A stretch of 64,000 bases of DNA from Escherichia phage ECO340P1. The stretch lies in the sequence record OP172791. One strand, written 5' to 3'. The notes below the pieces were generated by a model. That model did no database searches. It saw nothing but the letters and a program-made list of their open reading frames with translations, and was not told where the DNA came from. Positions 31,302 through 49,453 of this stretch are shown one piece after another (positions within the stretch are counted from its first letter, which is position 1; every line of letters begins with the position of its first letter). The position numbers and the translations under genes were made by a program.

Positions 31302-31304
31302 GTG

Positions 31305-31363
31305 TTGACATAGTTCTTAAAAAGAGTAAGATATATCACATGAAGCGGGGAATAGTTCCCCGC
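31305..31363 (+). promoter_or_regulatory. promoter-hairpin cassette (plus-strand copy) for TerC gene
   Basis: TTGACA 31305-31310, N16, TAAGAT 31327-31332, hairpin GCGGGGAA-TAG-TTCCCCGC 31345-31363, then SD GAGAGGAGAAAAG. Confidence 0.6.
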
Positions 31364-31380
31364 AAAGAGAGGAGAAAAGA

Positions 31381-32355: not shown

Positions 32356-32361
32356 TAAATG

Positions 32362-32386
32362 AGCCTCCTTCGGGAGGCTATTTTAT
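32362..32386 (+). terminator. rho-independent terminator after TerC gene
   Basis: AGCCTCC-TTCG-GGAGGCT followed by ATTTTAT. Confidence 0.7.
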
Positions 32387-32397
32387 AGGAGAGATTT

Positions 32398-32748: not shown

Positions 32749-32990
32749 AATACTTGTTGGTTGTGTTTGAAAATATCTGTTTTGCAATAGGGTTGTTTGT
32801 TGTAATTTTTGTATTGACAAGCGTAATCAACGGCAGTAAAGTGAGTTTATACCGAGATGGAGAGCAACTTTATTGCTTCTCTGGAGATTTCAAACACAGA
32901 TGTATTAATAGCCAAAACGAGGAAAGCAAATATGAAAAAACTAGCCCTGATTTTAATTGGTTGTATCTTTTTAACAGCTTGCGAGGATGA
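32745..32990 (+). CDS. possible small membrane protein (overlaps next gene by 59 nt)
   Basis: ORF with SD GAGGTG and hydrophobic segment; overlap makes it doubtful. Confidence 0.3.
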   Translation: MKYLLVVFENICFAIGLFVVIFVLTSVINGSKVSLYRDGEQLYCFSGDFKHRCINSQNEESKYEKTSPDFNWLYLFNSLRG

Positions 32991-33369
32991 AACAAATCCT
33001 GCACAATACCAACAACCTCCTCAACAATACGCTCAACAAGGATCTGACGGAGATACAACTATTATCAACAATGGTGGCGGTTCTAGTAGTAGCGGTGTTG
33101 GTGAGTTTGCTACAGGTATGTTGTTAGGGCATATGATGAGTGGCGGTAGTAATCGTAGCAGTGGGGATTATAACGATAACAGAACGATTATTAATAAGCA
33201 TTATAATACACCTAAACCGAAAACTAATTTTTATGGTAAGCCTAAACAAGAGATAAAAACTTATGAAAAGCCGAGACAAACTTTTAAAACAAATAGTAGC
33301 TATACAACTCGTAAATCTTACAATAGCCCTTTAAGTAAAAAGAGTTCATCTCGTAGCAAGCGACGTTAA
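32932..33369 (+). CDS. lipoprotein with Gly/Ser-rich region
   Basis: ATG 32932 with SD GAGGAAAG; signal peptide plus lipobox LTAC; glycine-zipper-like GEFATGMLLGHMMSGG. Confidence 0.6.
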   Translation: MKKLALILIGCIFLTACEDETNPAQYQQPPQQYAQQGSDGDTTIINNGGGSSSSGVGEFATGMLLGHMMSGGSNRSSGDYNDNRTIINKHYNTPKPKTNFYGKPKQEIKTYEKPRQTFKTNSSYTTRKSYNSPLSKKSSSRSKRR

Positions 33370-33383
33370 TAAGGAGAAAAACA

Positions 33384-33977
33384 ATGACAATTTCTATTCG
33401 TACTTCCATTACAGGTGTTAAAAGTTTGCCTAATGCTTTGCAAATCACACGTGCTTTGAGGGATACGTTCTCTGCTGTGGATGAGCATAAGATGCTCGAT
33501 AATCTCTCAAATTGGCCCTATTTTCATTATTTTAAAAATGAAGACGACGAGTTTATAGACGCTGTTTCTTACGGTTATGATTTCGGTAAGGAGGTTTCTC
33601 CTGAAGAATTTGTAGCTATGGTGTTCCCAAACGGTTTGCCTACTCGCAGTAAACGTAAAAAAGGACCAAAAAACAAGAAACGTGCTACTAATAAAGCTAC
33701 CATTTTCTTTACTGATGGCACACAATATACGATTAAAGATTTTGAAGAGGTATCTTATACAGCAGGTGGGAGTCTTTCTTTCTACACCATCAAAAAACAA
33801 AACTATACGTTCAGCCATGTTTCTAACATGATTGAAATGTTAGTAGAAGATATTGAAAGCGTGGCTGTGTTAGGTATGCATAAAAGCTTTTTAATTACAA
33901 ATATTTCAGATTTCAGTGCAAGTTTATCTGGCCCTGATTTTGAAGCCACGACCACGCATTTCGCTTTTAAGGTGTAA
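33384..33977 (+). CDS. hypothetical protein (197 aa)
   Basis: ORF with SD TAAGGAGAAAA; basic stretch RSKRKKGPKNKKR. Confidence 0.55.
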   Translation: MTISIRTSITGVKSLPNALQITRALRDTFSAVDEHKMLDNLSNWPYFHYFKNEDDEFIDAVSYGYDFGKEVSPEEFVAMVFPNGLPTRSKRKKGPKNKKRATNKATIFFTDGTQYTIKDFEEVSYTAGGSLSFYTIKKQNYTFSHVSNMIEMLVEDIESVAVLGMHKSFLITNISDFSASLSGPDFEATTTHFAFKV

Positions 33978-33980
33978 GTT

Positions 33981-34571
33981 ATGCATACCGAGAGAGACTT
34001 GCAACTCTTGTGGTGGGAAGTGATGCAGGAAATAAAAGAAGATTTTCCTGTTTACTACAACATGTTACGTGAAGCAGGATATAAAGCTTGTGTTAGAAAC
34101 AAAGTGAATAACTCTTTCGGTTGGTGCAACTACCGAGATAAAATTGTTGTTGTAAATTGGCACTTGCATAAGAACTCCACAAGAGATATGATCGTGGATA
34201 CAATGAAGCACGAAATTGCTCATGCTATTGATGGTTGTATGGGTAAGTTTAGTAGGCACGGTGCTCATTGGCAAAAACTGGCAGCAGAATTAGGGGCTAA
34301 TCCTAAAGCCACTTCCAAAGAGCCGTTGAACCACGAATATAAATATGTTCTTGTTCTGGTAGATAGGTTTGCGACAAGATGTGTTAGAGGTTATAATCGT
34401 AAACCTAATCGCATGTACCCAGGTAAGCAACCTAATATGTGGTTGAAATCAGATAAAGAAGGGACCGAAGGAAAATTATGGTTGTATAAATGGGACGATT
34501 GGGTTAAAGTAGCTAAAGAGTACGGTGTTTCACCATATATAAGAGATGCAGAAGAGGAGAATGAAGAATGA
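33981..34571 (+). CDS. SprT-like zinc metallopeptidase domain protein
   Basis: HExxH motif in context MKHEIAHAIDG. Confidence 0.6.
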   Translation: MHTERDLQLLWWEVMQEIKEDFPVYYNMLREAGYKACVRNKVNNSFGWCNYRDKIVVVNWHLHKNSTRDMIVDTMKHEIAHAIDGCMGKFSRHGAHWQKLAAELGANPKATSKEPLNHEYKYVLVLVDRFATRCVRGYNRKPNRMYPGKQPNMWLKSDKEGTEGKLWLYKWDDWVKVAKEYGVSPYIRDAEEENEE

Positions 34572-35680
34572 CAAGTCCATTTTTAAAAGCAGCTACTGGT
34601 GGTCAGAAGAAGCCTGAAATGAGCGTATTTGCTGCAACAACAGATGCAAGTAAATCTGTATTCGCTCCAAGCGTGTTAGATGCCAGTCCTGTTTATGCAC
34701 CAGCGGCACCGCAAGAAGTTCCAGTTTTGCCTTCTATGACCCGACAAGAGATTGAAGAGATTGGGGCAGAGGCAGGAACAACCTTGCGTTCCTTGAATGC
34801 CGAGGTGTTAAAACATCAACGTAGTAATCAAGGCGATCAGATGAGTGAACGACTCACAGCTTTGATTAAACAGGCAAAACAACTTGATCCAAACTCTATT
34901 AAACAAAGCAAGGGTATTACTAAACTCATTAAAAAAGTTATGGGTATGAAAGAAGACCTGTTCGGGGAGTTTGATAATGTTAATAACCGTATTGAAGAGT
35001 TGGTAAAGAACCTTCAAATGGATATTCGCAAAGAAGAAGATTCCTTGGTATATCTTGAAAAGCTGCATCAAGCTATTGGACAATATGCTGCAAGTTTGAA
35101 CCGAGATATGCAGCTTCTAACAGCAACCTATGAAAAAGAAGAACAAGCTTTGGCTGCTCTTCCAGAAGATGCAGTAGAACAGCGACAAGTGATCCGAGAT
35201 ACTTTGGATCTTCTGGAGATTCGTATTGCAGATTTAAAAGCATTGCGCCTACTGTGTGTCCAAATGGGACCGCGTGTACAAGGTATGCAAAAAGTTTCTG
35301 CAAGCTTAATGCGATCTGCGCGTAACATAGTAAATAATGTTATTCCTGCTTACTCTGCTAACTTCTCAATGTATATCGAGAGCTTACGTCAAATGAAAGC
35401 AGCAGAGACGCAGAATAACGTTCTTGATGAATTTAACCTGGCAATTAAACTGGGTAGCGATCTTGCCACACAGAATCAGATCGAAGCAGCAGCACTGGCT
35501 AACCGTCAAGTGTTGGATATTGAAACTCTGCGTCACGATCAGGAAAACTTGGTTAAGATGCTGGAAGAAACTAACCGCATCAATACGGAAGCCCGTGCTG
35601 CTCGTGTTGATTATATTAATGAAGTTCAATCTCTGGAAGACGGGATGGTAGCTGCTGTGAAACGAGGGCTTGGTAAATGA
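34568..35680 (+). CDS. coiled-coil protein, TelA/KlaA-like (tentative)
   Basis: Long helical Leu/Glu/Gln-rich protein; family assignment is from memory of TelA pattern and genomic context. Confidence 0.55.
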   Translation: MTSPFLKAATGGQKKPEMSVFAATTDASKSVFAPSVLDASPVYAPAAPQEVPVLPSMTRQEIEEIGAEAGTTLRSLNAEVLKHQRSNQGDQMSERLTALIKQAKQLDPNSIKQSKGITKLIKKVMGMKEDLFGEFDNVNNRIEELVKNLQMDIRKEEDSLVYLEKLHQAIGQYAASLNRDMQLLTATYEKEEQALAALPEDAVEQRQVIRDTLDLLEIRIADLKALRLLCVQMGPRVQGMQKVSASLMRSARNIVNNVIPAYSANFSMYIESLRQMKAAETQNNVLDEFNLAIKLGSDLATQNQIEAAALANRQVLDIETLRHDQENLVKMLEETNRINTEARAARVDYINEVQSLEDGMVAAVKRGLGK

Positions 35681-35874
35681 GAATCCGTATCTATATAATT
35701 GATGAAGACATTGGTGTCCGTTATGATGACGAAAAACGATTCGCACCGATGGGAGGCATATATCCCCCAAGTGTTCTAGCAGTTTGTCGTGATTGTTATA
35801 TTTATGAAGGTTGTCGTAACTTCCGTAAATTCGAACTCCTTGCAGATATTGACTTCAATGAGGAGGAGGAGTAA
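35677..35874 (+). CDS. hypothetical protein (65 aa)
   Basis: ORF with ATGA overlap. Confidence 0.5.
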   Translation: MRIRIYIIDEDIGVRYDDEKRFAPMGGIYPPSVLAVCRDCYIYEGCRNFRKFELLADIDFNEEEE

Positions 35875-36047
35875 TGAAAATATTACGAGTGAATATTGAA
35901 ACTGCTTGGTGTGGATGCAATGAGGTTGTTGATATTGAGATTGAAGAGGATATGTCTCAAGAAGATATCGAAGATCTTGCAAAAGAAACATTCCAGGATT
36001 ATTGTAACTACGGGTTCCATATTTTAGAGGAGGGAGAAGATGTTTAA
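35874..36047 (+). CDS. small acidic protein (57 aa)
   Basis: Unlisted ORF with SD GAGGAGGAGGAG. Confidence 0.4.
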   Translation: MKILRVNIETAWCGCNEVVDIEIEEDMSQEDIEDLAKETFQDYCNYGFHILEEGEDV

Positions 36048-36243
36048 CTACGAGAACGACCCTAACATTATCCAGTTAACTCGACAAGAACTGATCACAA
36101 TCATGGAAGATGCTTTTATCGATGGGTGGAAGACTCAAAACTATGATTGGAGTGGCCCAGAAGACTTTCTGCGTCTTCATAAAGAGTATGACGAGTCCAG
36201 TGAGACGACTATTGCCATTGACGATCTTAAGGCAGGTGTATAA
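36040..36243 (+). CDS. hypothetical protein (67 aa)
   Basis: ORF with SD AGAGGAGGGAG. Confidence 0.5.
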   Translation: MFNYENDPNIIQLTRQELITIMEDAFIDGWKTQNYDWSGPEDFLRLHKEYDESSETTIAIDDLKAGV

Positions 36244-36812
36244 TGGGTTGCTTTAGTTTTCTGTGTAAGGAGTCGGGCAAAGCTGCCCTCTCCACCTCTT
36301 TCGATGGATCTCCTTGTTATCTCTTTCTACTGAAAGATGGAAAGGTTATCGAAGAGATGCACGGCAATTATGATAGTTATGGGCGTGTCTTCTCCAGTAA
36401 GCAGGATGCTCACGGGAACAGAGAAAGCTTTAAATGGACTATACCTTGGAGCGACGTTTGTGATCTTATGTTCTCTGTAAACCGTGGAGACGGTATTGCT
36501 ATGGTTTTAGCAGAACACTTTACAGGAGAAGCCCCCACAGAACGATCCGAGGATGATCCTAATCAAGGTTGGGGAGACGGAGACGGAGAAGAAGAAGAGG
36601 ATTATTTCTACAGCACCGAAAATAATATTTTCAAACGTGTTGACAACCCTTATCATAAAGTGCATAATGTCCTCACTGAAACAGAAGACGACAAAATGGA
36701 AATTGAAGAAGATGATCCTCTTGTAACACTTCCTATAAGTGAGTTACAAAAGATCACTAAGGAAGCTTACGATTTGGGCTTCAAAATTGGTAGAGGAGGT
36801 ATGCGTGTTTAG
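36243..36812 (+). CDS. acidic hypothetical protein (189 aa)
   Basis: ORF; acidic stretch GDGDGEEEEDY. Confidence 0.55.
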   Translation: MGCFSFLCKESGKAALSTSFDGSPCYLFLLKDGKVIEEMHGNYDSYGRVFSSKQDAHGNRESFKWTIPWSDVCDLMFSVNRGDGIAMVLAEHFTGEAPTERSEDDPNQGWGDGDGEEEEDYFYSTENNIFKRVDNPYHKVHNVLTETEDDKMEIEEDDPLVTLPISELQKITKEAYDLGFKIGRGGMRV

Positions 36813-37083
36813 ATTCAATATTCAAGAAGAAAAAAGTCAAGATTTACCTATTGCTTTCGAAGATCTTGACGTAGGGGCAACATTCATGTATTATGATGCC
36901 TATGAAGACGCAGGGTTGGATACCTACCGTAACTTGGTGTTCATTAAAAATTCCACAAACAGTGCGATTTGTATTAATGGATCACTAGCACAACGAGGCT
37001 ATACTCATTGCATCCCACCAGATACAAATATGGTGGAAGTAGATTTAGAAGTTACCAATATTACACTTAAGAAGGAGAAATAA
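36805..37083 (+). CDS. small protein, paralog of 38105-38374 (GTG start)
   Basis: GTG five nt after SD GAGGAGG; shared motif DLDVG.TF.Y..A..E.GLD. Confidence 0.45.
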   Translation: MFRFNIQEEKSQDLPIAFEDLDVGATFMYYDAYEDAGLDTYRNLVFIKNSTNSAICINGSLAQRGYTHCIPPDTNMVEVDLEVTNITLKKEK

Positions 37084-37084
37084 T

Positions 37085-37879
37085 ATGTCCGAGAAAATCA
37101 GCCTGAAAAAACGTCAAGAAAACCTTGCTTTCTCTCTGAAAAAGAATAAGAACCTGAATGAAGGTAAGATTGTTCTTCGTGTAGCATGTGCTCTAGATAT
37201 TTCTGGTAGTATGCATGGTCTATATTCTAGTGGGGTAGTGAGTGATTTTGTAGGTAAACTGCTTCCTTTTGGTATGCTGTTCGACGATAATCAACAAATT
37301 GATATGTGGGCCTTCAATACGAGTTCCCAAGAGCTTACTCCAGCAACAGCAGACGTTTACGATGACTATGTTGGTAAATGTATGCGTAATGTTCGTATCG
37401 GAGGTGGAACAAATTACGCCCCTGTAATGGCAGATATCTACGATGAGTATTTTGGCACTGTTACCAAATATATTACCACTAAACAAGTGGTACAAGAGGA
37501 GGCTCCAAAGAAAGGCTTCTTTAATCGTCTGCTTGGTAAAACTGAAACAGTGTCTGTAGAGCGTGAAAAAGTTGTAGCTGTATCTGAACCAGGTGCTGAC
37601 GTTACCCCTGGTGTTGTATTCTTCCAGACGGATGGTGAGAATGGTGATCCTAGTGCTGTTCGTCGTCTTATTGAAGAGAATAAGAATAAACCTATTTATT
37701 GGTTCATGGTTGGCGTTGGTAATGAGAAGTTTGGGTTCCTGAAAGAACTGGCAAATGCTTATGATAATGTTGGTTTTATTGGCATTAAAGATTTAGACTT
37801 GACAGATTCAGAGCTTTATGACAAACTCTTATCTGAGGAGTTCGGAGAGTGGGTTGTTAAAGTAGGTGCTAAAAAATGA
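37085..37879 (+). CDS. von Willebrand factor type A (vWA) domain protein, TerY-like
   Basis: MIDAS motif LDISGSMHG, GGTNYAP, FFQTDGENGD; N-terminal KISLKK repeat like TerD N-terminus. Confidence 0.7.
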   Translation: MSEKISLKKRQENLAFSLKKNKNLNEGKIVLRVACALDISGSMHGLYSSGVVSDFVGKLLPFGMLFDDNQQIDMWAFNTSSQELTPATADVYDDYVGKCMRNVRIGGGTNYAPVMADIYDEYFGTVTKYITTKQVVQEEAPKKGFFNRLLGKTETVSVEREKVVAVSEPGADVTPGVVFFQTDGENGDPSAVRRLIEENKNKPIYWFMVGVGNEKFGFLKELANAYDNVGFIGIKDLDLTDSELYDKLLSEEFGEWVVKVGAKK

Positions 37880-38124
37880 TCGACGAGCTTGCCTCTCAAG
37901 TCATAGAAAATTATTGGCGCGAGAGAGAAGCTTTCATTATGCGCAGTCTCAAAGAGTATTTCATTGGGACTGTGCGAATGGAAGATATTGTAAGTAGAGT
38001 GGAGATTCATGTATGGCCCGATTATGAAGAATGGGTTGACAAAGAAAATGAAAATGCTATAATTCTTCGTATATACAAACCGGAGATAACATTAGGAGGA
38101 AGAAGTGTTAAACTTCGAAATTGA
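37876..38124 (+). CDS. hypothetical protein (82 aa)
   Basis: ORF with ATGA overlap. Confidence 0.45.
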   Translation: MIDELASQVIENYWREREAFIMRSLKEYFIGTVRMEDIVSRVEIHVWPDYEEWVDKENENAIILRIYKPEITLGGRSVKLRN

Positions 38125-38374
38125 TGAGCAAAAAGTAAATAAACGATGCCTTACCATTAAAGATTTGGATGTAGGAGATACTTTCGTCTATGAAAATGCA
38201 TTTGACGAAAATGGTTTAGACCTTAGTGAAATCATTGTTTATTTAAAAGTAGATGATGGGGAAAATGATTATTCTGCTGTAGAACTAAACCATCATGCAC
38301 AATTAGTATCAATCCAAAACACATCTAAGCTTTTGGAAGTAGAATTGACTGTAACTGGTATTACACTTAAATAA
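38105..38374 (+). CDS. small protein, paralog of 36805-37083 (GTG start)
   Basis: GTG after SD GGAGGAAG; paralogous sequence. Confidence 0.45.
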   Translation: MLNFEIDEQKVNKRCLTIKDLDVGDTFVYENAFDENGLDLSEIIVYLKVDDGENDYSAVELNHHAQLVSIQNTSKLLEVELTVTGITLK

Positions 38375-38389
38375 TAGAGGAGACAAAAG

Positions 38390-38992
38390 ATGACTGATAA
38401 AATTTCCCTGAAAAAAGGCTCTAGCGAAAAAATTTCCCTGAAGAAAGTTGCTCCGGCTCTGAAAGAACTGCGCCTGGAATTCTCTTGGAAATCTGATTCT
38501 AAACTGGATCTGGATGTAAGTGCACTGGTTTGTCGTCACAATGCCGCTGGTAATCCTGAAATGCTGTCTGCACGTCATCTGGTTTGCTATGCTAACAAGT
38601 TTGATCCTGAACGTTCTACCTTCGCTGGTGACGATGTTCGTGATGGAACTGGCAGCATGGAGCAGATTGATATTACTCTGGCTAAAATCTCTCCTGATGC
38701 ACAAGAGATTGCCTTTGTTCTGACCATTGATGATGATACAGGTCTGAAACGTTTTGGTCATGCTTCTGAAGGTATGCTTAAAATCTTCGACTCCGAGCGC
38801 AATGTGGAAATTCTGGATTTTGACTTCCTGGCTCCTGAAGTAGCTGGCAACACAATCTGCCACGTGGCTTCCTTGGTTCGTGAAGATGGGGAATGGAAGC
38901 TGAAAGCATATGGTGTAGGTAAAGCTGGTCTGGATATTTGTGATGTGGTGATGGCCTTCGGTGGTAAAAAAGAATGGTATGAATGTCCATAA
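38390..38992 (+). CDS. TerD-domain protein
   Basis: N-terminal KISLKKGSSEKISLKK, DLDVSALV, acidic-loop GDDVRDGTGSMEQIDI, C-terminal WKLKAYGVG match TerD family pattern. Confidence 0.8.
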   Translation: MTDKISLKKGSSEKISLKKVAPALKELRLEFSWKSDSKLDLDVSALVCRHNAAGNPEMLSARHLVCYANKFDPERSTFAGDDVRDGTGSMEQIDITLAKISPDAQEIAFVLTIDDDTGLKRFGHASEGMLKIFDSERNVEILDFDFLAPEVAGNTICHVASLVREDGEWKLKAYGVGKAGLDICDVVMAFGGKKEWYECP

Positions 38993-39091: not shown

Positions 39092-39613
39092 TTGCTGATA
39101 AAAAACTTTGTAACAGTTGCGTTACTATCCTTAACTGCTTTTACATTTACACCTGTTGTGGCGAAAGCCGAAGCTGCAAACGTAAAAACCGCTAAAGTAG
39201 TTCACAAATGTACAAAGCAATATAATGATAAAATTCTATTAGCTTGTGCAATTTACGCAGAAGGTCGCGGTCTGGGTAAAAAAGGAATGAATGCCGTTGG
39301 GAATGTGGTAATCAACAGAAGAAATGATACCTACTTCCCTAACACAGTCAGAGGAGTCTTGTTCCAGAAAGGACAATTCTCATATGCGAAAACTTTTAAC
39401 GTAACAGAGAAAGATAAGTGGCAGGAAGCAAAAGCAATAGCGGAACGTTTACTTTATTTAGAGAAACATTTTCCTGAATTGCGGTCTGTTTTAGATGTTA
39501 CTAAAGGTGCTCTATACTTCAAGAAACGGAATATAAGGACAAACTGGGAACGTGATATGCGTCTTGTTTATCGAGATAAAGTGCATGGTTTCTATCTACC
39601 AAAGGGGAGTTAA
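39092..39613 (+). CDS. secreted cell-wall hydrolase, SleB-like (candidate endolysin)
   Basis: TTG start after SD AAGGAGG; signal peptide; motifs LLACAIYAEGRG and NTVRGVLFQKGQFSY. Confidence 0.65.
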   Translation: MLIKNFVTVALLSLTAFTFTPVVAKAEAANVKTAKVVHKCTKQYNDKILLACAIYAEGRGLGKKGMNAVGNVVINRRNDTYFPNTVRGVLFQKGQFSYAKTFNVTEKDKWQEAKAIAERLLYLEKHFPELRSVLDVTKGALYFKKRNIRTNWERDMRLVYRDKVHGFYLPKGS

Positions 39614-39899: not shown

Positions 39900-40129
39900 T
39901 GGGAGAAGTCATTGAAGTCAATTTTCGCACTAAACAGAAAGTGCAAAAATATGTCGTTATTAAAAACATTTGCGTTGTCTGCTTCAATACAGTAATATAC
40001 GACTCACGACGCGGAGAAAACGAAAATGAACCTTACATTGAAATTTCTAAGAACAAAGGTCAATGTATTTGTAAGAACTGTGCAGTAGCTATTAAGGAGG
40101 TTGTAAATGAAAACGCTTGGGACCAATGA
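39899..40129 (+). CDS. small Zn-ribbon protein (76 aa)
   Basis: ATG 39899 (TGATG overlap); CVVCF and CKNC motifs. Confidence 0.45.
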   Translation: MGEVIEVNFRTKQKVQKYVVIKNICVVCFNTVIYDSRRGENENEPYIEISKNKGQCICKNCAVAIKEVVNENAWDQ

Positions 40130-40298
40130 AACTGGCGAAATCTCTCTTCAAGAAGTGACAAACGACAAGCTGATTAAACTACGGGATGTAGCTCGTGACC
40201 ATCTCCAAGAATCTTTTAAAGAATATATGGAAGCACGAGATCGTGTGATCCAGATTCAACAAGAAATGATTAAACGTGGGATTGTAGCTGACAGTTAA
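40107..40298 (+). CDS. hypothetical protein (63 aa)
   Basis: ORF with SD AAGGAGG. Confidence 0.5.
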   Translation: MKTLGTNETGEISLQEVTNDKLIKLRDVARDHLQESFKEYMEARDRVIQIQQEMIKRGIVADS

Positions 40299-40314
40299 TA
40301 TAACGGAGGGGAGA

Positions 40315-40878
40315 ATGATTTATTATATTACTCCCTATCTGACAGGAAATATCGGCAAGGCTATCAATGAAGCCATTGCCGTTCTTCCAGATGATAGTTG
40401 GGTGTGTTTAAGAGATACCGATACAATGTTCCTCCTACCTGATCAACCATCTATGCTTGAAGAGCTTGTTATGTCAAATCCGCCTTTTGATGTAATAGGT
40501 GCAACTTGTAACAGGTTAGGCAGTGGTTATCAGCTTTTCTCTAACCAAATTAACGATGATCCAGATATTCTAAACCATATAGAATATGCTAAGATTGCAA
40601 GAGAATATCATAAAGTGAGTGTTGAAGAAGTTCCTTTCGGAACACCTCTAGCAGGTTTCTTCTTGCTTTTTAGAAAATCATTGTGGAATGAAATTCCTTT
40701 CGAAGAAAAATCTATCCAATTCGACTTAATTTTCTCTCGCACTTTACATGAAAAAGGAAAGAGGTTAGGATTGATGCGGGGAATGTATCTGTTTCACATT
40801 TACAGATTAGGTCAAACAAATCCTCAACGGTCTATACATCATTTATTACACTGTCATGATCACAGTAAAACTATTTAG
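40315..40878 (+). CDS. hypothetical protein, possible glycosyltransferase-associated
   Basis: ORF with SD GGAGGGGAG; DTDTMF motif; in glycosyltransferase cluster. Confidence 0.55.
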   Translation: MIYYITPYLTGNIGKAINEAIAVLPDDSWVCLRDTDTMFLLPDQPSMLEELVMSNPPFDVIGATCNRLGSGYQLFSNQINDDPDILNHIEYAKIAREYHKVSVEEVPFGTPLAGFFLLFRKSLWNEIPFEEKSIQFDLIFSRTLHEKGKRLGLMRGMYLFHIYRLGQTNPQRSIHHLLHCHDHSKTI

Positions 40879-40886
40879 GAGAGAAA

Positions 40887-41570
40887 ATGGAAAATATTAA
40901 AATTGGAGTGGGTGTTATCACTGTAGGTGTCCGTCCACTTAAAGACTACCTTGTAACAGATCCACGTGCAGATTTTCGAGTATTCAACGATCCAGATCGT
41001 AAAGGTGTAGCTTATGCCAGGAATGAACTTATGCACCAGTTTTATGAAGAAGGTTATGATTATTGGTTTATTTTTGACGACGATTGCTACCCAGTCATGG
41101 AGGGATGGGAAACATACTTTGTAGGTCAAGCTGTCTCTGGAGGATGGGATTTCTTTGGTATGCCGGAGTATTTCAAAGATAAAGTTGTTGGAAGCAAAGG
41201 AGAAGTTATTCTCTGGGAACTTGCAATGTGTCAATTTGCAATGTATTCTCGTGCCGTTGTTGAGAAGATGGGTTATTTCCGTCCTTACACTCACGGCTAT
41301 GGTTTTGAAGATGCTGAATGGGGACACCGTTTGCAAGCTGCTGGTTTGAATCATGGTATTCAGGCAACACCTTGTCCACTTCGTATCATGGCTTATATCC
41401 ACCCAGACGATGTTTTTGGAAACAATCCTATGCCTTTTGCTAATCTGACAAAAGAAGAGAAAGAAGCTGCTATCGGGATTAACTGGGAAGAATATAAAGC
41501 ATCTTTAGAGGATATTAAAAATGGGAAAATCCGAATTTCCTATGAGGAGGCACTGGCACATGTCAAATAA
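40887..41570 (+). CDS. glycosyltransferase family 2-like protein
   Basis: DxD motif IFDDDC and GYGFEDAEWGHR motif. Confidence 0.6.
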   Translation: MENIKIGVGVITVGVRPLKDYLVTDPRADFRVFNDPDRKGVAYARNELMHQFYEEGYDYWFIFDDDCYPVMEGWETYFVGQAVSGGWDFFGMPEYFKDKVVGSKGEVILWELAMCQFAMYSRAVVEKMGYFRPYTHGYGFEDAEWGHRLQAAGLNHGIQATPCPLRIMAYIHPDDVFGNNPMPFANLTKEEKEAAIGINWEEYKASLEDIKNGKIRISYEEALAHVK

Positions 41571-42507
41571 AAAATGGTCTAAACTAAAAATTGATGCAAA
41601 ACCTCATAGCGGTTGTGACTATCATCGTATTGTTATGCCATTTAACAACAATAATTTTCAACCTAAGAAAGATATTGTTGTGTTTAACCGTATCCACTCT
41701 AAAGGTGCAGAATACGTTTTATCTTTGAAACGTCAAGGTGTTAAGGTTGTTGTAGATTTAGATGATTTTTACCAACTTAATCCAGAGCATTATTTAGCAA
41801 GTCTATACGAGTCAAACACTCATGCTATTGTAGCTATGGTTAAGCTTGCTGATGTGGTTATTGTGACTACAGAATATTTGGCATATAAGATCCGTCACTT
41901 AAATAGAAATGTCGTTGTGATCCGAAATGCACTTCCTTTTGATAGCGGACAATTCACTTTGTCAAATGATCGTTCATCCGGTACCCCTGTTGTATGGGCT
42001 GGCGGTGCTAGTCACGAACCAGATTTACGACTAGTCTCTAATACTTTCGATGATGAACTTCTTACTATTGCGGGATATGAAGCATCACAAAGCATCACGG
42101 GACAAGAGTGGATTAAGATTCGCAGAAATTTACCAAATGCCAAATATAAAGCTGCTGTAAAAGATTTAGATAATTACATGAGTGTTTACGAAAGTCATGC
42201 TATTGCTATAGCTCCTTTGGTAGACAATGATTTTAATAATTGTAAAAGTAATCTCAAAATCCTGGAAGCTGGAGCAAAAGGTATTCCGATTATTTGTTCT
42301 AAGGTATTACCTTATTTTAACCCTGTAGATGCTCGCGCTGTTGCTTACGCAGAGAATAAAGCAGAATGGCATTACGAAATTGTTAAGCTTCTTCGCAATC
42401 CAAACTATCGGGAAGATCGTGGCTTGTTCTTGGCTGAACATGTTCGAACACATTATAATCTGGCAGATGCAAACGAGTTGCGACGCCAGGTTATTGAAAG
42501 TTTGTAG
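41560..42507 (+). CDS. glycosyltransferase-like protein, tandem paralog A
   Basis: ATG 41560; C-terminal KSNLKILEAGAKGIPIICS resembles GT-B nucleotide-sugar motif. Confidence 0.55.
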   Translation: MSNKKWSKLKIDAKPHSGCDYHRIVMPFNNNNFQPKKDIVVFNRIHSKGAEYVLSLKRQGVKVVVDLDDFYQLNPEHYLASLYESNTHAIVAMVKLADVVIVTTEYLAYKIRHLNRNVVVIRNALPFDSGQFTLSNDRSSGTPVVWAGGASHEPDLRLVSNTFDDELLTIAGYEASQSITGQEWIKIRRNLPNAKYKAAVKDLDNYMSVYESHAIAIAPLVDNDFNNCKSNLKILEAGAKGIPIICSKVLPYFNPVDARAVAYAENKAEWHYEIVKLLRNPNYREDRGLFLAEHVRTHYNLADANELRRQVIESL

Positions 42508-42514
42508 GTGAAGT

Positions 42515-43459
42515 ATGGGACAAATAATTCTTGACAATCGTAACGGAATCAATTATAGTGTCTGCGATTTCCATAGGGTAGTGCTGCCTTACTCAAGGCA
42601 GTTCTCTTCACAACCTAAATACAACGTTTTCGTTTTTAACGGAGTGCCAACAAAAGGTAAAGAGGGCTTTTTAGCCCTTAAAAACCTAGGCTTTAAAATG
42701 GTTATGGATTTGGATGACTCTTTAGTTATTCCAAAAGGACACATGTTAGAAGGTATTTTTGAATCAGGTATTCGTGAACATTTAAAATGGTTTTTAGAGC
42801 ACAGTGATCTTGTTACAACTACGACACCTGCCTTGCAAGTTGAACTTTCACAATACAATGATAATGTGCACATAATCCCTAATGGACTTCCTTATGACGA
42901 AGGTCAATTTGTGTTGACCCGTGATCGCTACTCCAAAACTCCATTAGTCTGGGCTGGAAGTGAAACACATAAGCAAGATTTGGCTATCTTGCCCGATTTT
43001 GGTAAAGATCTTACAATATGTGGTTTTCGTAGGGATTCTGAAGTTTTAAGTAGTCGTGAATGGTCTGTAATCAGAGAAAATGTAGCACCAACTTGTGTTT
43101 ATGAAGGTGTAAGACCATATGCCAACTACATGGAATCTTACGATGGTCATCAAATCAGTCTTGCGCCACTGATTGATAACGTGTTTAATAATGCAAAAAG
43201 CAATCTTAAAATTCTTGAGGCAGGTGCTAAGGGTTTACCTTTGATCTGTTCTCCTCGTGAGAATTATCATACACAAGAGTTTAAAGATCTGTTGTTCTTT
43301 GCTGAAACACCTTCCGAGTGGAAAGATATTACGGAATACTTATTAAGTGCTCCCGATGTTTGCATGGAGAAAGGATTAGCATTAGCTAAGTATGTCAGGA
43401 CTCATTATCACATTGATGTGTTGAATGAGCGTCGTAGACTTTTATTTGAGGAGCTATAA
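42515..43459 (+). CDS. glycosyltransferase-like protein, tandem paralog B
   Basis: Paralog of previous gene (CD(Y/F)HR, DLDD, KSNLKILEAGAKG(I/L)P(I/L)ICS). Confidence 0.55.
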   Translation: MGQIILDNRNGINYSVCDFHRVVLPYSRQFSSQPKYNVFVFNGVPTKGKEGFLALKNLGFKMVMDLDDSLVIPKGHMLEGIFESGIREHLKWFLEHSDLVTTTTPALQVELSQYNDNVHIIPNGLPYDEGQFVLTRDRYSKTPLVWAGSETHKQDLAILPDFGKDLTICGFRRDSEVLSSREWSVIRENVAPTCVYEGVRPYANYMESYDGHQISLAPLIDNVFNNAKSNLKILEAGAKGLPLICSPRENYHTQEFKDLLFFAETPSEWKDITEYLLSAPDVCMEKGLALAKYVRTHYHIDVLNERRRLLFEEL

Positions 43460-43737
43460 TGATTAACACTTTTGATTTTGAATACACCACTCGTAACGGG
43501 AAAGCCTTAGTTGTGGAGGTGGATTACTATTATGAAGAGCCTAACCCGCTTTCTCGTGAAAGTGATTGGGATTACCACGGAGGGCTTTTAATTGACGGTA
43601 TTCGTTTTTATGAAGGCTCTACAGAAGTTTTTGAAAAAGATTTAAATGTAACTGTAGCAGAAATTGCTTTCCAATTTAGAAAGCATATGGAAGAACTAGA
43701 AGCAGAATATATGATGGAGACTAACGAACCATTTTAA
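43459..43737 (+). CDS. hypothetical protein (92 aa)
   Basis: ORF with SD. Confidence 0.55.
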   Translation: MINTFDFEYTTRNGKALVVEVDYYYEEPNPLSRESDWDYHGGLLIDGIRFYEGSTEVFEKDLNVTVAEIAFQFRKHMEELEAEYMMETNEPF

Positions 43738-43749
43738 CAGGAGAACAAA

Positions 43750-45528
43750 GTGTCGCACATTATAACTAAATATGGATTTGATGTTGATCTTAGCAAGGAA
43801 GGGCATACAGGTTGTCCGCGCTGCATGAAAAATGGCAAGGATCGCTCTCGTAATAACCTGATGGTTTATGGATTAGATTCTAATGGAGAGCATAAAGGTG
43901 CTAAGTGCTTTGCGTGTGAATACACTATTCCTAGCGTAGAATGGTTACGAGAAAATGGTGAAGTTTTAGAAGAAGAGGAGGAGATTGTGGGTTCGGAATT
44001 TAATAAACAGATTCATCGTAAAATTGTTCAAGAAACATCAACCAACCCACGTGGTTATCGAGGAATTAAAGAAAAAGTTTCATCTTTCTATGGTGTTCGT
44101 TATGAATACCGTCAGGAAGGGGATCAGATGGTAGTAGAAAGTTGTTTATATCCGACTACTATCGGTAAAGAATTGGTTGGTTTTAAGCGTCGTATTCATC
44201 CTAAAGATTTCAGTAAACCTATTGGTCAAGTAGGTAAAGATGTAGATCTTTTTGGACAAATTCGTTTTGCAGACCGTTCTCATACTGTGGTAATTACAGG
44301 TGGTGAACACGATGCTCTGGCAGCTTATCAAATGCTATCTGAAAACTTGGACAACAAGTATGAACTTCCAGCAGTAGTTAGTGGCACAACTGGTGAAACC
44401 AGTATGTATAAACAAGTTCAGGCACAATATCCTTTCTTTGAAAAATTTAAGAAGATTATTGTTTGCATGGATAATGACAAAGCAGGTAATGAAGCATTTG
44501 AAAATATTGTTAAGGTGCTGCCTCGTAACAAAGTCTACCGTATGCAGATGGATCTTAAGGATGCCAATCAGTATCTGGAAGAAGGTCGTGCAAAAGATTT
44601 CGTAAAAGCTTTTTGGAGTGCTCGTCTATACACCCCAGCAGGTGTTTATGCTTCTAATGTCTTGTATGAAGCTGCATTAGAATGCTTGGAATCCAAGATG
44701 ATTACCTTGCCTCCTTTTATGCGTGTAGCTGCAAACATGCTGGGTGGTGGTTTAGTAGAGGAAGAGATTACAGTCATCCTGGCAAAGACCAGTATCGGTA
44801 AAACTTTAATGGTGAACGAGATCACCAAACATATTATTGTTGCGCACCCAGAACATACCCTAGGTATCCTGTCCTTGGAAGCAACTTATAAGAAATATTC
44901 TCGTAACCTGTTGTCCTCGTTCCTGCATATTCCTCTACACAGGAAAACACCGGAAGAGAAATTTCAAATCTTGGAAGAGAATAAAGAAAAAATCCTAGAT
45001 TTTTACGAAAGAGAAGATGGATCACCACGTTTTTATGTGTGTGATGATCGTGGAGCAGATGTGGAGTCTATCAAAGAAAAAGTTTTGGAGATGATCATCT
45101 ATTTTGGAGTAACAATTCTTGTTATCGACCCTTATTCTGATTTGCTTTCTGGTATGGATGTTCAAGCCCAGGAAGAGTTAGCAACATGGTTGAAGCGCAT
45201 CATGAAAGAGTATGCTATAACTATTATCGTCATCTCACACGTTAAGAAATCGGCTAATGGTGGCAATGAACACTTAACAGAGGACGATGCAATGGGTAGT
45301 AGTTTCTTGGCTAAAGGTGCTGGTATTACCTTGGCTTTGGAACGAGATAAAGCCGCTGAAGACCCTGTAGAACGCAATACGACTCATTGCTTTATCCTAA
45401 AAAACCGTGAGTTCTCGGAAACTGGTCCGGCAGGGCAGTTTTACTATGACATTAGAACTGCAACTCTGCATGACAAAGAGCAGTATTTCAACAATCCTGC
45501 TAATTTGCCTACGGATAGCAACTATTAA
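43750..45528 (+). CDS. DNA primase/helicase (T7 gp4-like)
   Basis: GTG start after SD AGGAGAA; Zn-binding CPRC..CFAC, TOPRIM (GGEHDA, MDNDKAGNEA), Walker A AKTSIGKT. Confidence 0.85.
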   Translation: MSHIITKYGFDVDLSKEGHTGCPRCMKNGKDRSRNNLMVYGLDSNGEHKGAKCFACEYTIPSVEWLRENGEVLEEEEEIVGSEFNKQIHRKIVQETSTNPRGYRGIKEKVSSFYGVRYEYRQEGDQMVVESCLYPTTIGKELVGFKRRIHPKDFSKPIGQVGKDVDLFGQIRFADRSHTVVITGGEHDALAAYQMLSENLDNKYELPAVVSGTTGETSMYKQVQAQYPFFEKFKKIIVCMDNDKAGNEAFENIVKVLPRNKVYRMQMDLKDANQYLEEGRAKDFVKAFWSARLYTPAGVYASNVLYEAALECLESKMITLPPFMRVAANMLGGGLVEEEITVILAKTSIGKTLMVNEITKHIIVAHPEHTLGILSLEATYKKYSRNLLSSFLHIPLHRKTPEEKFQILEENKEKILDFYEREDGSPRFYVCDDRGADVESIKEKVLEMIIYFGVTILVIDPYSDLLSGMDVQAQEELATWLKRIMKEYAITIIVISHVKKSANGGNEHLTEDDAMGSSFLAKGAGITLALERDKAAEDPVERNTTHCFILKNREFSETGPAGQFYYDIRTATLHDKEQYFNNPANLPTDSNY

Positions 45529-46061: not shown

Positions 46062-46856
46062 TTGAGCAAGTTGAACACACTTGATCAATATTACACTAAC
46101 CCCGCTTATGCGGGGTTCTTATGTGATAAGATCAAAGAAATTTTTGGAGAGGAAGCTAACTACGTAGAACCATCTGCGGGAGAAGGAGCTTTCTCTTCTT
46201 GTTTTAAAAACATAACTTCTTTTGATATTGACCCTAAGTTTGAAGATTGTATTGAGGCAGATTTTTTAGCTCAATCTGTTGAGTCTGTTGGTAGTGTAAC
46301 TGCTTTTGTCGGTAATCCTCCATTTGGAAAAAATGCTAGTCTTGCCATTAAATTCTTTAACCATTGTGCTGAAATGCTGGATAACGAAGGTGGTATTTGT
46401 TTTATCTTGCCTCGCACATTTCAAAAAATCTTTTTTGCACACAAGCTAAATCCCCATATGCATCTTCTTTACGAAGAAGAATGTCCAAAAGGATCTTTTA
46501 TTCTTCATGGAGAACCTTGGGATGTTCCTTGTGTATTCCAGGTATGGATTAAACGCAACGAGAAGCGTTCTCCCGTTGTTTTAGGAGAGAATCGACTATT
46601 CGTATTAGGTAACAGTAAAGACTACGATATAGCCGTTAGGAGAGCGGGAGCAAGTGCAGGTAAAGTGTTATCAGAAGAAGATTCTTTATCTGAAGCATCT
46701 ACCTATTTTTTAAAAGCCTTGACTTCTGATCTTAAAACGCGTATCATTGAGGCTTACCCGTTACTTAAAGCTGAAGCTAGTAAAACTGCGGGAGTAAGAA
46801 GTTTAAGTTTAAAAGAACTTCAGTGGGTTCTGGAGAACATTAGAAAGGAGGAATAG
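46062..46856 (+). CDS. DNA N6-adenine or N4-cytosine methyltransferase (gamma-class-like)
   Basis: TTG start after SD AAGGAGG; motif order QYYTNP, EPSAGEGAF, VGNPPFG. Confidence 0.75.
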   Translation: MSKLNTLDQYYTNPAYAGFLCDKIKEIFGEEANYVEPSAGEGAFSSCFKNITSFDIDPKFEDCIEADFLAQSVESVGSVTAFVGNPPFGKNASLAIKFFNHCAEMLDNEGGICFILPRTFQKIFFAHKLNPHMHLLYEEECPKGSFILHGEPWDVPCVFQVWIKRNEKRSPVVLGENRLFVLGNSKDYDIAVRRAGASAGKVLSEEDSLSEASTYFLKALTSDLKTRIIEAYPLLKAEASKTAGVRSLSLKELQWVLENIRKEE

Positions 46857-49453
46857 TGAGTAAGTTTACATGGGATATTGAAGCAAACGGATTGTTGAAT
46901 AATGACACTATTGATTATTTAGCTAGTCCTTATCGTCTCAAAGACACATTTCAAATGCACTGTATTGTCTTAGAGAACCATGAAACAGGAGAAATAGTAG
47001 CTTTCCACGATGGCCCTAAATACATCTTTGATGGGCGTCCTTACGAAGAGTCAGATGGTAAATACACATATGTTCTTAAAGAGTATGTGGCGCAAGATTA
47101 CACACATTTTCAACTAAAAGATTTCCCAGATTTTATTAATCATGAAGGTTATTTTAAAGACAAGCCTGAATATCTAGTTGAAATGGCTGTGGCTCACAAC
47201 GGTATCAACTACGACTGGTTGGCTACAAAACTGTTTTATGGATTAGATTACAGTGTTAAATATAATACGTGGGGCAAAAATAAGGTAAAACTTATTGACT
47301 CCTTGATTTTGAGTAAAGTGTTAAACCCAGATCGAAAGATTGAGGGCAAATCAGGACATAGCTTGGCAGCACTTTCTCGAAAAGCAGGTGGTGATGTAAA
47401 AATAGATTTCCGTAAAGAGATTCCAGAAGAAGATCGATTTAAGACTTTTGCTGCGGATATGCTTTATTACTGTATCTATGACAACAAAGCCAATACGAGC
47501 GTATATAATTACCTTATGGAAGAATGGGGTGATTATGATAAATGGGAAGGTCCATTTGAACTTGAACAACGTGTAGCAGACATTATTACACGCCAGGAAC
47601 ACCGTGGGTTTGCTTTTAACATGAAACAAGCAGAAGAGAACCTTGCTTTTTTGGATGCAGAAATGGAGCGTCTTCGTTTACTCGTTGAGCCTATTTTGCC
47701 ACCTAAACCAGCAACAAAAGGTTATCTTAAGGCTTTTATTCCACCTAAGTTGCAAATTAAAAAGAACTTAGAGCCAACTAACCATATGATCAATTTTGCT
47801 AAGAAACATGATGGTCATTTGGAAGAGAGGGATGGCGATTGGTGGTTAGTTATGTTGGGGAAAGAGTGGAAACTGCCAGTTGCAGCAGATGAGCCTCTAT
47901 GTGATCCTAACATTCCTGCAACATTGAACGATACAACCCATATTAAAAACTGGCTTGTAGGATTAGGTTGGGTACCGTCTGAATATAAAGATAAAGACTT
48001 GACGCTTAAATCTGGCACCAAAATTAAAAAGAGCGAGGAAGAACTTCAGAAAGGTATTAGAGCTTACGTTGAGCAAACTCTATCTTCTAATTTTTGTCAG
48101 GATCGTTGTGATCATCTGGAGTGCACACCGGAAACTTTGGAAAGGAAGATTCAAGAGCGTATAGCAAAAGGTAAAGGTCGCGGTCTTAAAGTATTGACTA
48201 ACCCATGTTTTACCAAAGGTCAGGAAAAAGAAATTTGTCCTAACCTGCAAGCTTTGGGTGAGAAATTTCCTTATGCTACACAGATTGTAGAATACTTAAC
48301 GTATAAGCATCGTAGGAACTCTATTTTAGGTGGCGGTGCTGATTGGGAAGAAGATGAAGAAGATCAAGAATACGATAAAGGTTTCTTAGCCGCAGTAAGG
48401 GCGGATGGGCGTATTCCTACACCAGCCGCTACATGTGATGCTGCAACCTCTCGTATGAAACATAGATCTGTAGCTAATATTCCTCGTGTCACATCTTTGT
48501 TTGGATGGGAGATGCGTAACTTGTTTGGTGTAGAGGTTCCTAAATACTTCCAGATCGGCTACGACTTCGACTCTTTGGAAGCAAAAATTGAATCACATTA
48601 CTGTTGGCGGTACGAGCCGGAGCCACACGAGTATTGTAACGCTCTGTTGTTAGAGAAACCTAATGATGTTCACACAATGATGGCAAAACGTATCACTGAA
48701 ACTATTGGACGTAAATTTGAACGTAGTCCTGCTAAATCTGTTAAGTATGGTATTACCTATGGTGCACAAGCCGACAAGGTTGCTAAAACAATTGGTAGCG
48801 ACAAGTTTACAGGTCAATTGGTGTTCGATGCTTTCTGGGAAGCTGCATTCCCATTGGCGCGTCTTAAAGAACGTTTAAACGATTTCTGGGTTAAGACTGG
48901 TAAACAATATGTTTTGGGTATTGACGGTCGTAAGGTTCCTACTCGTTCTGCTCACGCGATTCTTAACTCTCTGTTCCAAAGCGGTGGGGTTATCTGTGCT
49001 AAACGTGCAATGGTTATTTATGATGACATGATCGAAGAAGAAGGGCTAAGTGTTGACTTCTTTAAAGATGACTGGAAGAATAAAGACTTCGTGCAACAAA
49101 TGATTGCATATCACGATGAAGCCCAGCTTGAAGTTTCTCGTAACCTTGTAGAATTCAAATGGTTTTCACCTGAATCATTAGGTTGGAAGAAAGTAGACGA
49201 TCCTGAAGAACAAAAGAAAATTGATAAAGAATGCCTTGCTAAAGTCGAAGAATGGAAGCATAATAAGGAAAAAGAGACAGGGCAAATTTGGGCTAACATT
49301 CATGAATCTCCCAAAGGTGGATGGTTTACAGCCTATAGTCGGGCAGGTGAACTTGCTGCTTTAGCTGTTACTAAAGCTGGAGAATTTTACAATCTTAATG
49401 TTCAGCTTACTGCTGGATATGACGTGGGGAATTCCTGGGCCAGTTGTCACTAA
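46856..49453 (+). CDS. family A DNA polymerase with 3-prime to 5-prime exonuclease
   Basis: GTG start after SD AAAGGAGGAA; Exo I WDIEANGL; motif A GYDFDSLEAKI; motif B RSPAKSVKYGITYGA; motif C YHDEAQ. Confidence 0.9.
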   Translation: MSKFTWDIEANGLLNNDTIDYLASPYRLKDTFQMHCIVLENHETGEIVAFHDGPKYIFDGRPYEESDGKYTYVLKEYVAQDYTHFQLKDFPDFINHEGYFKDKPEYLVEMAVAHNGINYDWLATKLFYGLDYSVKYNTWGKNKVKLIDSLILSKVLNPDRKIEGKSGHSLAALSRKAGGDVKIDFRKEIPEEDRFKTFAADMLYYCIYDNKANTSVYNYLMEEWGDYDKWEGPFELEQRVADIITRQEHRGFAFNMKQAEENLAFLDAEMERLRLLVEPILPPKPATKGYLKAFIPPKLQIKKNLEPTNHMINFAKKHDGHLEERDGDWWLVMLGKEWKLPVAADEPLCDPNIPATLNDTTHIKNWLVGLGWVPSEYKDKDLTLKSGTKIKKSEEELQKGIRAYVEQTLSSNFCQDRCDHLECTPETLERKIQERIAKGKGRGLKVLTNPCFTKGQEKEICPNLQALGEKFPYATQIVEYLTYKHRRNSILGGGADWEEDEEDQEYDKGFLAAVRADGRIPTPAATCDAATSRMKHRSVANIPRVTSLFGWEMRNLFGVEVPKYFQIGYDFDSLEAKIESHYCWRYEPEPHEYCNALLLEKPNDVHTMMAKRITETIGRKFERSPAKSVKYGITYGAQADKVAKTIGSDKFTGQLVFDAFWEAAFPLARLKERLNDFWVKTGKQYVLGIDGRKVPTRSAHAILNSLFQSGGVICAKRAMVIYDDMIEEEGLSVDFFKDDWKNKDFVQQMIAYHDEAQLEVSRNLVEFKWFSPESLGWKKVDDPEEQKKIDKECLAKVEEWKHNKEKETGQIWANIHESPKGGWFTAYSRAGELAALAVTKAGEFYNLNVQLTAGYDVGNSWASCH

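Follow-up and report, generated by a model that had tools for sequence, protein, structure and literature searches.

A co-inherited cluster of four soluble glycosyltransferases in phAPEC8-like coliphages

Escherichia phage ECO340P1 (sequence record OP172791) carries a cluster of four glycosyltransferase (GT) genes, which we analyzed in a 64,000-nucleotide stretch of its DNA. This whole stretch is referred to as the window, and positions are those of the window unless another record is named. The four open reading frames (ORFs) are real, lie on the plus strand, and encode proteins of 187 (GT1, 40315-40878), 227 (GT2, 40887-41570), 315 (GT3, 41560-42507), and 314 (GT4, 42515-43459) amino acids. 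The spacing between them is an 8-nucleotide gap, an 11-nucleotide overlap, and a 7-nucleotide gap, and GT4 overlaps the next ORF by 1 nucleotide. Shine-Dalgarno-like sequences were found upstream of the starts at 40315 and 41560; because of the latter, 41560 was chosen as the start of GT3 over a longer ORF from 41521. A terminator scan found no plus-strand terminator-like site within the cluster, and promoter-like matches were not above chance (26 seen, 19 ± 4 expected). The promoter and terminator scan was uninformative as a whole; from their tight packing and the lack of an internal terminator-like site, the four GT genes read as one transcription unit.

The cluster belongs to a long plus-strand block that holds ribonucleotide reductases, Ter-type genes, an endolysin, a primase/helicase, a DNA polymerase, and a single-stranded DNA-binding protein. 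The endolysin gene (39092-39613, plus strand) lies upstream of the cluster, and the primase/helicase (43750-45528, plus strand) and DNA polymerase (46856-49453, plus strand) genes lie downstream, which agrees with the placement between lysis and replication genes in an earlier, sequence-only reading of this DNA. An ORF of 92 amino acids (43459-43737) directly follows GT4; it was rejected as a member of the cassette, as it travels with the primase/helicase gene instead.

The 3.8-kb segment from 40000 to 43800 is 99.7% identical to the corresponding segment of Escherichia phage Mt1B1_P17 (NC_052662.1; Stephanstirmvirinae, Phapecoctavirus), which served as the reference genome and in which window position x lies at about x + 4731. 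The segment is present in 70 phage records, about 64 of them other phAPEC8-like phages with an identity of at least 95% and six more with 60 to 80%. The cluster is an existing, already annotated gene class: all four genes are labeled "glycosyltransferase" in RefSeq NC_052662.1, and all four proteins match "glycosyltransferase" families in PHROGs with E values from 5e-78 to 3e-149, which places the ORFs far beyond chance. A search of NCBIfam assigned none of the four proteins to a family. None of them has a membrane segment, the top 19-residue Kyte-Doolittle hydropathy being 0.76 to 1.65.

GT1 had been described in the sequence-only reading only as a protein associated with three GTs. Its membership in the cluster held, but the protein is itself a GT of the GT-A fold. 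GT1 matches phrog_14179 (E 8.5e-113) and has a DxD motif at D34-T35-D36 (nucleotides 40414-40422), of which D34 and D36 are kept in at least 90% of 26 sequences. Among the 32 homologues found, the invariant residues include D59, N66-R67-L68, H161, and Y163-R164. The AlphaFold2 model of GT1 has a predicted local distance difference test (pLDDT) score of 93, and its top Foldseek matches in the PDB are the GT domain of LH3, ColGalT1, WrtF, B4GALNT1, and K4CP. A fold search of BFVD returned a Cellulophaga phage GT as the top match (TM score 0.88), followed by generic phage GT-A proteins. A Pfam scan of GT1 gave no match. Since GT1 also has the D34-x-D36 motif, a confident model, and GT-A neighbors, all four proteins are GTs, as the sequence-only reading of the cluster as a whole had supposed.

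GT2, which matches phrog_2456 (E 5e-78), is more restricted, with only 17 homologues in the databases. The DxD and ED motifs recognized earlier in this protein correspond to F63-D64-D65-D66 (FDDD, nucleotides 41073-41084) and Y138-G139-x-E141-D142 (YGFED, nucleotides 41298-41312), and both are invariant across 18 sequences. The AlphaFold2 model of GT2 (pLDDT 88) matched STIV A197, vaccinia H3, TarP, the LH3 GT domain, WrtF, and RmlT in the PDB. The models of GT1 and GT2 both matched solved GT-A enzymes at a Foldseek probability of 1.0. Fold comparison was needed for this assignment, as single-sequence and profile searches of PDB sequences with the two proteins returned nothing useful. In Pfam, GT2 stayed below the curated thresholds and matched in the DxD region only, with 13 bits against the gathering score of 23.3 for PF00535 (Glycos_transf_2) and 19.5 bits against 27.5 for TAGT (residues 32-68, E 1e-3). 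GT1 and GT2 are thus GT-A enzymes by fold and not curated members of the GT2 family.

GT3 and GT4 both match phrog_7162 (E 3e-149 and 5e-145, respectively). The two proteins are 41% identical across 303 amino acids (E 2e-77), as expected for the tandem GT-B-like paralogs that had been proposed. Against the 25-bit cut-off of PF13524, GT4 scored 25.2 bits, barely over, and GT3 scored 20.7 bits, under; the match of GT3 to PF13692 was also below threshold. Several GT-B homologues carry precomputed PF13524 matches. A profile of 29 GT-B sequences matched the C-terminal domains of TreT, PglA, and BshA, which we take to be members of the GT4 enzyme family, at profile positions 234-316 with weak E values of 2e-3 to 3e-2. 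This weak but consistent similarity suggests that the C-terminal nucleotide-sugar-binding domain is related to that of solved GT4-family enzymes. The canonical E-x7-E motif of that family is absent from the phage GT-B family: the position of the first glutamate is A, C, or G, and the matching stretch in the GT4 protein is K228-S-N-L-K-I-L-E235 (nucleotides 43196-43219).

In the N-terminal domain of GT4, the invariant residues are H20-R21 and D65-x-D67-D68. Twelve residues within or adjoining the N-terminal, acceptor-side half (H20, R21, P25, D65, D67, D68, H76, D98, N123, F132, H152, and D155) are invariant or nearly so, being present in 16 or 17 of 17 homologues. These homologues represent five bacterial phyla or classes and include sequences from Enterobacterales, Pseudomonas, Ideonella, Acetivibrio, and several Bacteroidota. 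GT3 and GT4 retain every family-invariant residue, and both therefore look active. The divergence between them is about equal in the N-terminal halves (38% identity) and the C-terminal halves (43% identity), and therefore gives no hint as to whether the donor or the acceptor side has changed. It is plausible that the duplicated pair serves two different sugars or has two specificities for the acceptor.

The phages that carry the cluster also encode RmlC and RmlD, and dTDP (deoxythymidine diphosphate)-L-rhamnose is therefore the likely donor. The rmlC and rmlD genes lie outside the window, at 117033-118435 of NC_052662.1, and both proteins of the reference genome exceed the cut-offs of their NCBIfam equivalogs (225 versus 156 bits for RmlC and 236.5 versus 224 bits for RmlD). 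RmlD is spread over essentially the same phage clade as the GT cluster. In the reference genome, tblastn found no RmlB-like sequence, and RmlA was neither annotated nor detected. Olsen et al. (2020) called the dTDP-rhamnose pathway complete in these phages; here, only the last two steps were confirmed. Since RmlC and RmlD occur without RmlA and RmlB, the phage pathway seems to be partial and to depend on the host. Every E. coli makes dTDP-4-keto-6-deoxy-glucose through RffH and RffG for enterobacterial common antigen (ECA), and the phage RmlC and RmlD would turn this host intermediate into dTDP-L-rhamnose, whatever the O-serotype of the host. In one relative (L005), a nucleoside diphosphate-hexose 4,6-dehydratase with RmlB as its best match lies directly 5' of GT2. 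The module is probably fed by phage-made dTDP-L-rhamnose.

Distant large myoviruses share the synteny with a single GT-B gene, in the order Ter genes, endolysin, small GT-A, GT-A, GT-B, small ORF, primase/helicase, and polymerase. In Klebsiella phage KP2025, the small GT-A and GT-B genes are adjacent and a GT-A homologue is found elsewhere in the genome. A Serratia prophage has the trio in identical order, with overlapping genes, between lysis and terminase genes. GT-A/GT-B pairs were found in lambdoid contigs, flanked by the Q antiterminator/hicAB and holin-lysozyme genes, in Pseudomonas prophages directly upstream of the genes for a phage metallopeptidase, the large terminase, and the portal, and in an unclassified phage contig between terminase and portal. 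More distantly, in Bacteroidota prophages the GT-B gene and those of other sugar enzymes lie together between primase and terminase genes. In IMG/VR, the exact family motif was found in more than 570 GT-B relatives, and the intact cluster is present in about 135 virulent genomes. The ancestral unit is the trio of small GT-A, GT-A, and GT-B, which has been inherited and moved horizontally together. The enzymes are thus a mobile unit that is carried by phages and whose members act together, and we are fairly confident that they make up a co-inherited, soluble glycan-assembly module of three to four enzymes.

Two GT-B copies are present in both Phapecoctavirus and Justusliebigvirus (phi92 gp163-166). 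In a neighbor-joining tree, GT3 clusters with the GT-B proteins of prophages that have one copy, and GT4 is in a clade of its own; from this grouping, the duplication appears to be old and common to the two genera. OZ035770.1 (Justusliebigvirus alia; L018, 2429-3412) has a single hybrid GT-B, whose N-terminal half is of the GT3 type and whose C-terminal half is of the GT4 type. The junction lies near the predicted boundary between the halves in this phage and in the protein P0030, while P0031 switches later, at the conserved KSNLKILEAGAKG motif. Since the hybrid occurs in an isolate as well as in metagenomes, the pair can collapse through recombination in a viable phage. The ancestral trio, its mobile spread, the shared GT-B duplication, and the hybrid collapse are new relative to the annotation.

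The GT-B domain was also seen as the C terminus of ORFs of about 880 to 1,700 amino acids in contigs of metagenome-assembled genomes from Gammaproteobacteria, Chromatiaceae, and Dechloromonas (L036-L040). These long ORFs adjoin other giant ORFs, in an apparently non-phage context.

It was proposed in the sequence-only reading that the enzymes glycosylate phage DNA bases as a protection against restriction. The GTs would then put sugars, possibly rhamnose, on hydroxymethylated or otherwise modified bases, an idea that Olsen et al. (2020) had raised from the dTDP-rhamnose genes. The cluster adjoins primase/helicase and DNA polymerase genes, as would suit such a role, and one environmental locus has a Mom-family neighbor. 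In addition to the subthreshold TAGT match, the DxD region of GT2 weakly matches the PHROG of beta-glucosyl-hydroxymethylcytosine alpha-glucosyltransferase (E 9e-6). The T4 AGT/BGT and TET-TAGT systems are likewise phage-encoded Leloir GTs near DNA metabolism genes. In contrast to those systems, no gene for a hydroxymethyl base was found here, the DNA is restrictable, and the cassette is also carried by temperate phages.

The search for base-modifying genes comprised the RefSeq annotation of the reference genome and Pfam scans of 67 of its ORFs, and its sensitivity is that of Pfam. It recovered ThyX, a 5'-nucleotidase, a MazG-like protein, and other enzymes, but no ThyA-type hydroxymethylase, no TET/JBP or other 2-oxoglutarate oxygenase, and no C5-methyltransferase, ThyX being the only candidate of this kind. 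To our knowledge, glycosyl transfer to DNA occurs only on hydroxymethylated pyrimidines, and we know of none on canonical bases. Published digests show that HincII cuts the DNA of phages ESCO37 and REC, which is 99.7% identical to the window, while three other phages in that study resisted digestion. The phi92-like phages PaulScherrer and EmilieFrey of the BASEL collection carry the orthologous cluster yet were found "exceptionally susceptible" to restriction-modification systems, and these phi92-like phages were described as restriction sensitive "despite a putative dTDP glycosylation machinery." The cassette also resides in small temperate lambdoid and HK97-like prophages.

Because of the missing modifier genes, the HincII cutting, the restriction-sensitive relatives, and the small temperate carriers, bulk DNA glycosylation is unlikely, and we are fairly confident that the acceptor of the module is something other than bulk DNA. 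Rare sequence-specific modification may be the sole version of a DNA role that is left, and we consider a role on phage DNA very improbable overall.

The ThyX gene, which lies in the region 110429-112045 of NC_052662.1 (L003, 42430-44046), is the sole thymidylate synthase-like gene that was found. The 332-residue protein is divergent, with a partial match to Pfam Thy1 (33 bits) and an extra C-terminal region, and its gene adjoins that of an NT5C-type 5'-deoxynucleotidase. It was taken as ordinary dTMP supply.

We propose that the four genes encode a co-transcribed cytoplasmic glycan-building line of soluble Leloir-type GTs, two GT-A and two GT-B, which would work one after another to assemble, on a single acceptor, a short oligosaccharide that contains rhamnose. 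This description of the module, together with an acceptor other than bulk DNA, is in our view very likely correct. As a best guess, the acceptor would be one or more phage virion proteins, modified at flexible termini or on unresolved tail fibers, by analogy with the O-glycosylation of capsid and tail-tube proteins by mycobacteriophage Che8 gp108-110. Our confidence in virion proteins as the acceptor is low, and the explanation as a whole, with this acceptor included, is tentative; the rivals, in order of rank, are host envelope glycans, another cytoplasmic target, and rare DNA sites.

Several observations point to virion proteins. The acceptor-side residues of the GT-B enzymes are kept across very different hosts (16 or 17 of 17 homologues), and this was counted in favor of an acceptor that does not depend on the host envelope. 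The solved neighbors of GT1 include the collagen-glycosylating enzymes LH3 and ColGalT1; ColGalT1 presumably belongs to the GT25 family, whose Pfam model is matched by Che8 gp110. A tblastn search of 50,697 phage genomes with GT2 returned, outside its own clade, almost exclusively mycobacteriophages (352 records). In mycobacteriophage Dorothy, the GT-A domain at the N terminus of gp102 was matched by the GT2 profile with 72 bits (E 4e-23); two genes away from gp102 is gp104, an orthologue of Che8 gp110 (91%). Che8 gp110 is reported (Freeman et al. 2023, as cited in PMC11256854 and PMC12363180) to be essential for capsid glycosylation in the only known phage virion glycosylation system. In Cellulophaga phage phi17:1, the GT1 homologue is encoded between portal/head-morphogenesis and protease/capsid genes and adjoins a TylF-type Methyltransf_24 protein, and the same methyltransferase domain is found in Che8 gp108. 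These sequence links of the cassette to virion glycosylation through mycobacteriophages and a Cellulophaga phage are suggestive.

The Che8 locus resembles the present one in that both consist of phage-encoded small soluble GT-A enzymes that act together, in addition to the GT2-gp102 and ColGalT1-gp110 similarities described above. The Che8 gp108-110 locus differs in that it contains no GT-B. The cluster here differs in turn by the Gram-negative host, by the supply of dTDP-rhamnose through phage RmlC and RmlD, and in that no sugar methyltransferase was found. Che8 virions carry O-glycans on capsid and tail tube, whereas a structural study of phi92 (see below) reports none. Glycosylation of capsids or fibrils with virus-encoded nucleotide-sugar enzymes is also established for chlorovirus PBCV-1 and mimivirus. 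These viruses likewise combine both late steps of a 6-deoxyhexose (rhamnose) pathway with several soluble GTs; they infect eukaryotes and use UDP- rather than dTDP-rhamnose.

A number of results weigh against virion proteins as the acceptor. In pairwise comparisons of the four GTs with Che8 gp108-110, no significant match was found (best E 0.004), and homologous GT-A domains cannot be assumed to share an acceptor. The link to the Che8 locus runs only through Dorothy gp102. A census of the neighbors of 27 dereplicated GT-B loci found a large terminase gene in about one-third, which is about chance for a window of ±7 kb, and replication genes were similarly frequent. Since the association with terminase or portal genes is not clearly over chance, a position next to morphogenesis genes was not used as strong evidence. 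Sites at replication/packaging junctions and moron sites also fit accessory or lysogenic-conversion genes, and the cluster in the window is co-oriented with the replication genes, not with the structural genes. The C termini of the capsid, decoration, tube, and sheath proteins have no obvious Ser/Thr-rich tails. Freeman et al. in 2023 reportedly saw little evidence of virion glycosylation outside actinobacteriophages. Finally, a 2026 electron cryomicroscopy study of the whole phi92 virion (capsid, tail, and baseplate at 3 to 3.9 Å) never mentions glycans or glycosylation; because of this, glycans on the ordered parts of the major phi92 proteins are unlikely, and the candidate sites shrink to flexible termini and unresolved fibers only.

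Two further items were set aside. In the reference genome, a gene that lies between those for the portal and the scaffold is annotated as a "DNA methyltransferase" but encodes an XkdF-type prohead protease rather than a sugar methyltransferase. A paper in which ten phages, coliphage JEP7 among them, did not stain for glycoproteins was left out of account, since it gives no taxonomy for JEP7.

In a wider version of the virion-protein proposal, a mobile cassette, fed in this subfamily by RmlC and RmlD, would rhamnosylate virion proteins in phages of Gram-negative and other bacteria, and the conserved H-R/D-x-D-D acceptor site of the widespread GT-B would recognize a phage-intrinsic feature. We regard this version as possible but doubtful. 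We know of no virion glycosylation system outside actinobacteriophages, and the cassette would be the first.

The main rival to a virion-protein acceptor is the host envelope. The soluble GTs could act at the inner membrane face, adding rhamnose-containing branches to undecaprenyl-linked O-unit or ECA intermediates or to lipid A-core, so that the altered surface would give superinfection exclusion in lytic phages and lysogenic conversion in prophages. GT2-like GT-A and GT4-like GT-B enzymes are the usual cytoplasmic enzymes of O-antigen and lipopolysaccharide (LPS) synthesis, and the solved neighbors of the phage proteins include PglA, which acts on an undecaprenyl diphosphate acceptor, TarP, RmlT, WrtF, and K4CP. 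TarP of Staphylococcus aureus prophages, Listeria RmlT, PglA, and O-antigen enzymes of the GT2 and GT4 families share the folds of the phage proteins, are their closest solved structures, and are soluble like them. RmlT uses dTDP-L-rhamnose, and a shared rhamnose donor is plausible. The moron sites of the temperate-phage cassettes (Q antiterminator/hicAB-lysis and lysis-terminase) suit an envelope role, and GT3 is basic, with an isoelectric point of 8.5. RmlC and RmlD would tap the ECA precursor pool. Relatives of these phages have been reported to bind ECA and the LPS core as receptors.

However, the genetic setting differs from that of the glycopolymer enzymes. No carrier-lipid, flippase, or polymerase gene is linked to the cluster, and the serotype-conversion features of GtrA/GtrB/GtrC were lacking, with no transmembrane segment in the four GTs and no Gtr-like neighbors. 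The acceptor-side residues of the GT-B enzymes are invariant across phages of Acetivibrio (Gram positive), Bacteroidota, Pseudomonas, and enteric bacteria, whose unrelated envelopes share no acceptor. The cluster is fixed in a strictly virulent subfamily that retains all four genes, intact in its many virulent genomes, and remodeling within a single lytic cycle would alter few existing receptors. Modification of host surface polysaccharide, the second possibility in the sequence-only reading, is thus weakened by the lack of membrane segments and the host-independent acceptor-side residues, while the folds and moron sites still favor it. On balance, we consider an envelope acceptor unlikely.

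Alternatively, the cassette may glycosylate a host protein or small molecule for takeover or counter-defense. EarP, a GT-B enzyme, rhamnosylates an arginine of EF-P and gives a chemical precedent for a dTDP-rhamnose-dependent GT-B that acts on a protein. Soluble enzymes with a phage-made supply of dTDP-rhamnose would suit such a target, as would an acceptor that seems universal across very different hosts and the co-orientation with replication-type genes, which were taken as early or middle class. Speculatively, the invariant acidic D65-x-D67-D68 and H20-R21 could bind a cationic acceptor. Searches of Pfam, NCBIfam, and PDB, however, found no similarity to EarP, toxin-type GTs, or defense and anti-defense families, and three or four cooperating enzymes point to an oligosaccharide, not to inactivation by one sugar. 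We judge a target of this kind to be quite unlikely, below the envelope in rank.

The choice among these acceptors has practical consequences, as Phapecoctavirus and phi92-like phages are among the most often isolated broad-host-range coliphages and have been characterized for therapy or biocontrol. If present on the particles, phage-made glycans could alter how these phages adsorb, are recognized by antibodies, and are cleared, as has been reported for mycobacteriophages. Should the target be the host envelope or a host protein, the cassette would represent a new function in takeover or exclusion. Whichever holds, the dTDP-rhamnose genes and GTs of these phages are commonly assumed to mark DNA hypermodification, and this assumption appears wrong, which matters when their restriction sensitivity is predicted.

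A run of Ter-type genes lies directly 5' of the endolysin gene (28911-38992, plus strand). It includes genes for a HAD-like hydrolase (28911-29567), a ComF-like phosphoribosyltransferase (29560-30387; Pfam PRTase_3, E 2e-41), a TerC membrane protein (31189-32163), a TelA-like "toxic anion resistance" protein (34376-35488), a vWA/TerF-like protein (37085-37879), and a TerD-like protein (38390-38992), all on the plus strand. The same Ter-type set accompanies the GT module in distant relatives (L015 and KP2025). Between the primase/helicase and polymerase genes, a plus-strand ORF of 264 amino acids (46062-46856), hypothetical in RefSeq, contains an N6-adenine-methyltransferase-like "GNPPFG" motif. 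Outside the window, NC_052662.1 encodes Sir2-like, NADAR-domain, and Macro-domain proteins (including L004, 13638-14453), which are related to NAD or ADP-ribose and could have counter-defense functions.

Some records named Campylobacter phage (MG0656xx) or Acinetobacter phage vB_AbaM_ABPW7 closely match the E. coli phages studied here. The Phapecoctavirus-like ones among them show 96 to 100% protein identity to the window, while the remainder give phi92-type scores, and the Campylobacter and Acinetobacter host labels of these records look doubtful.

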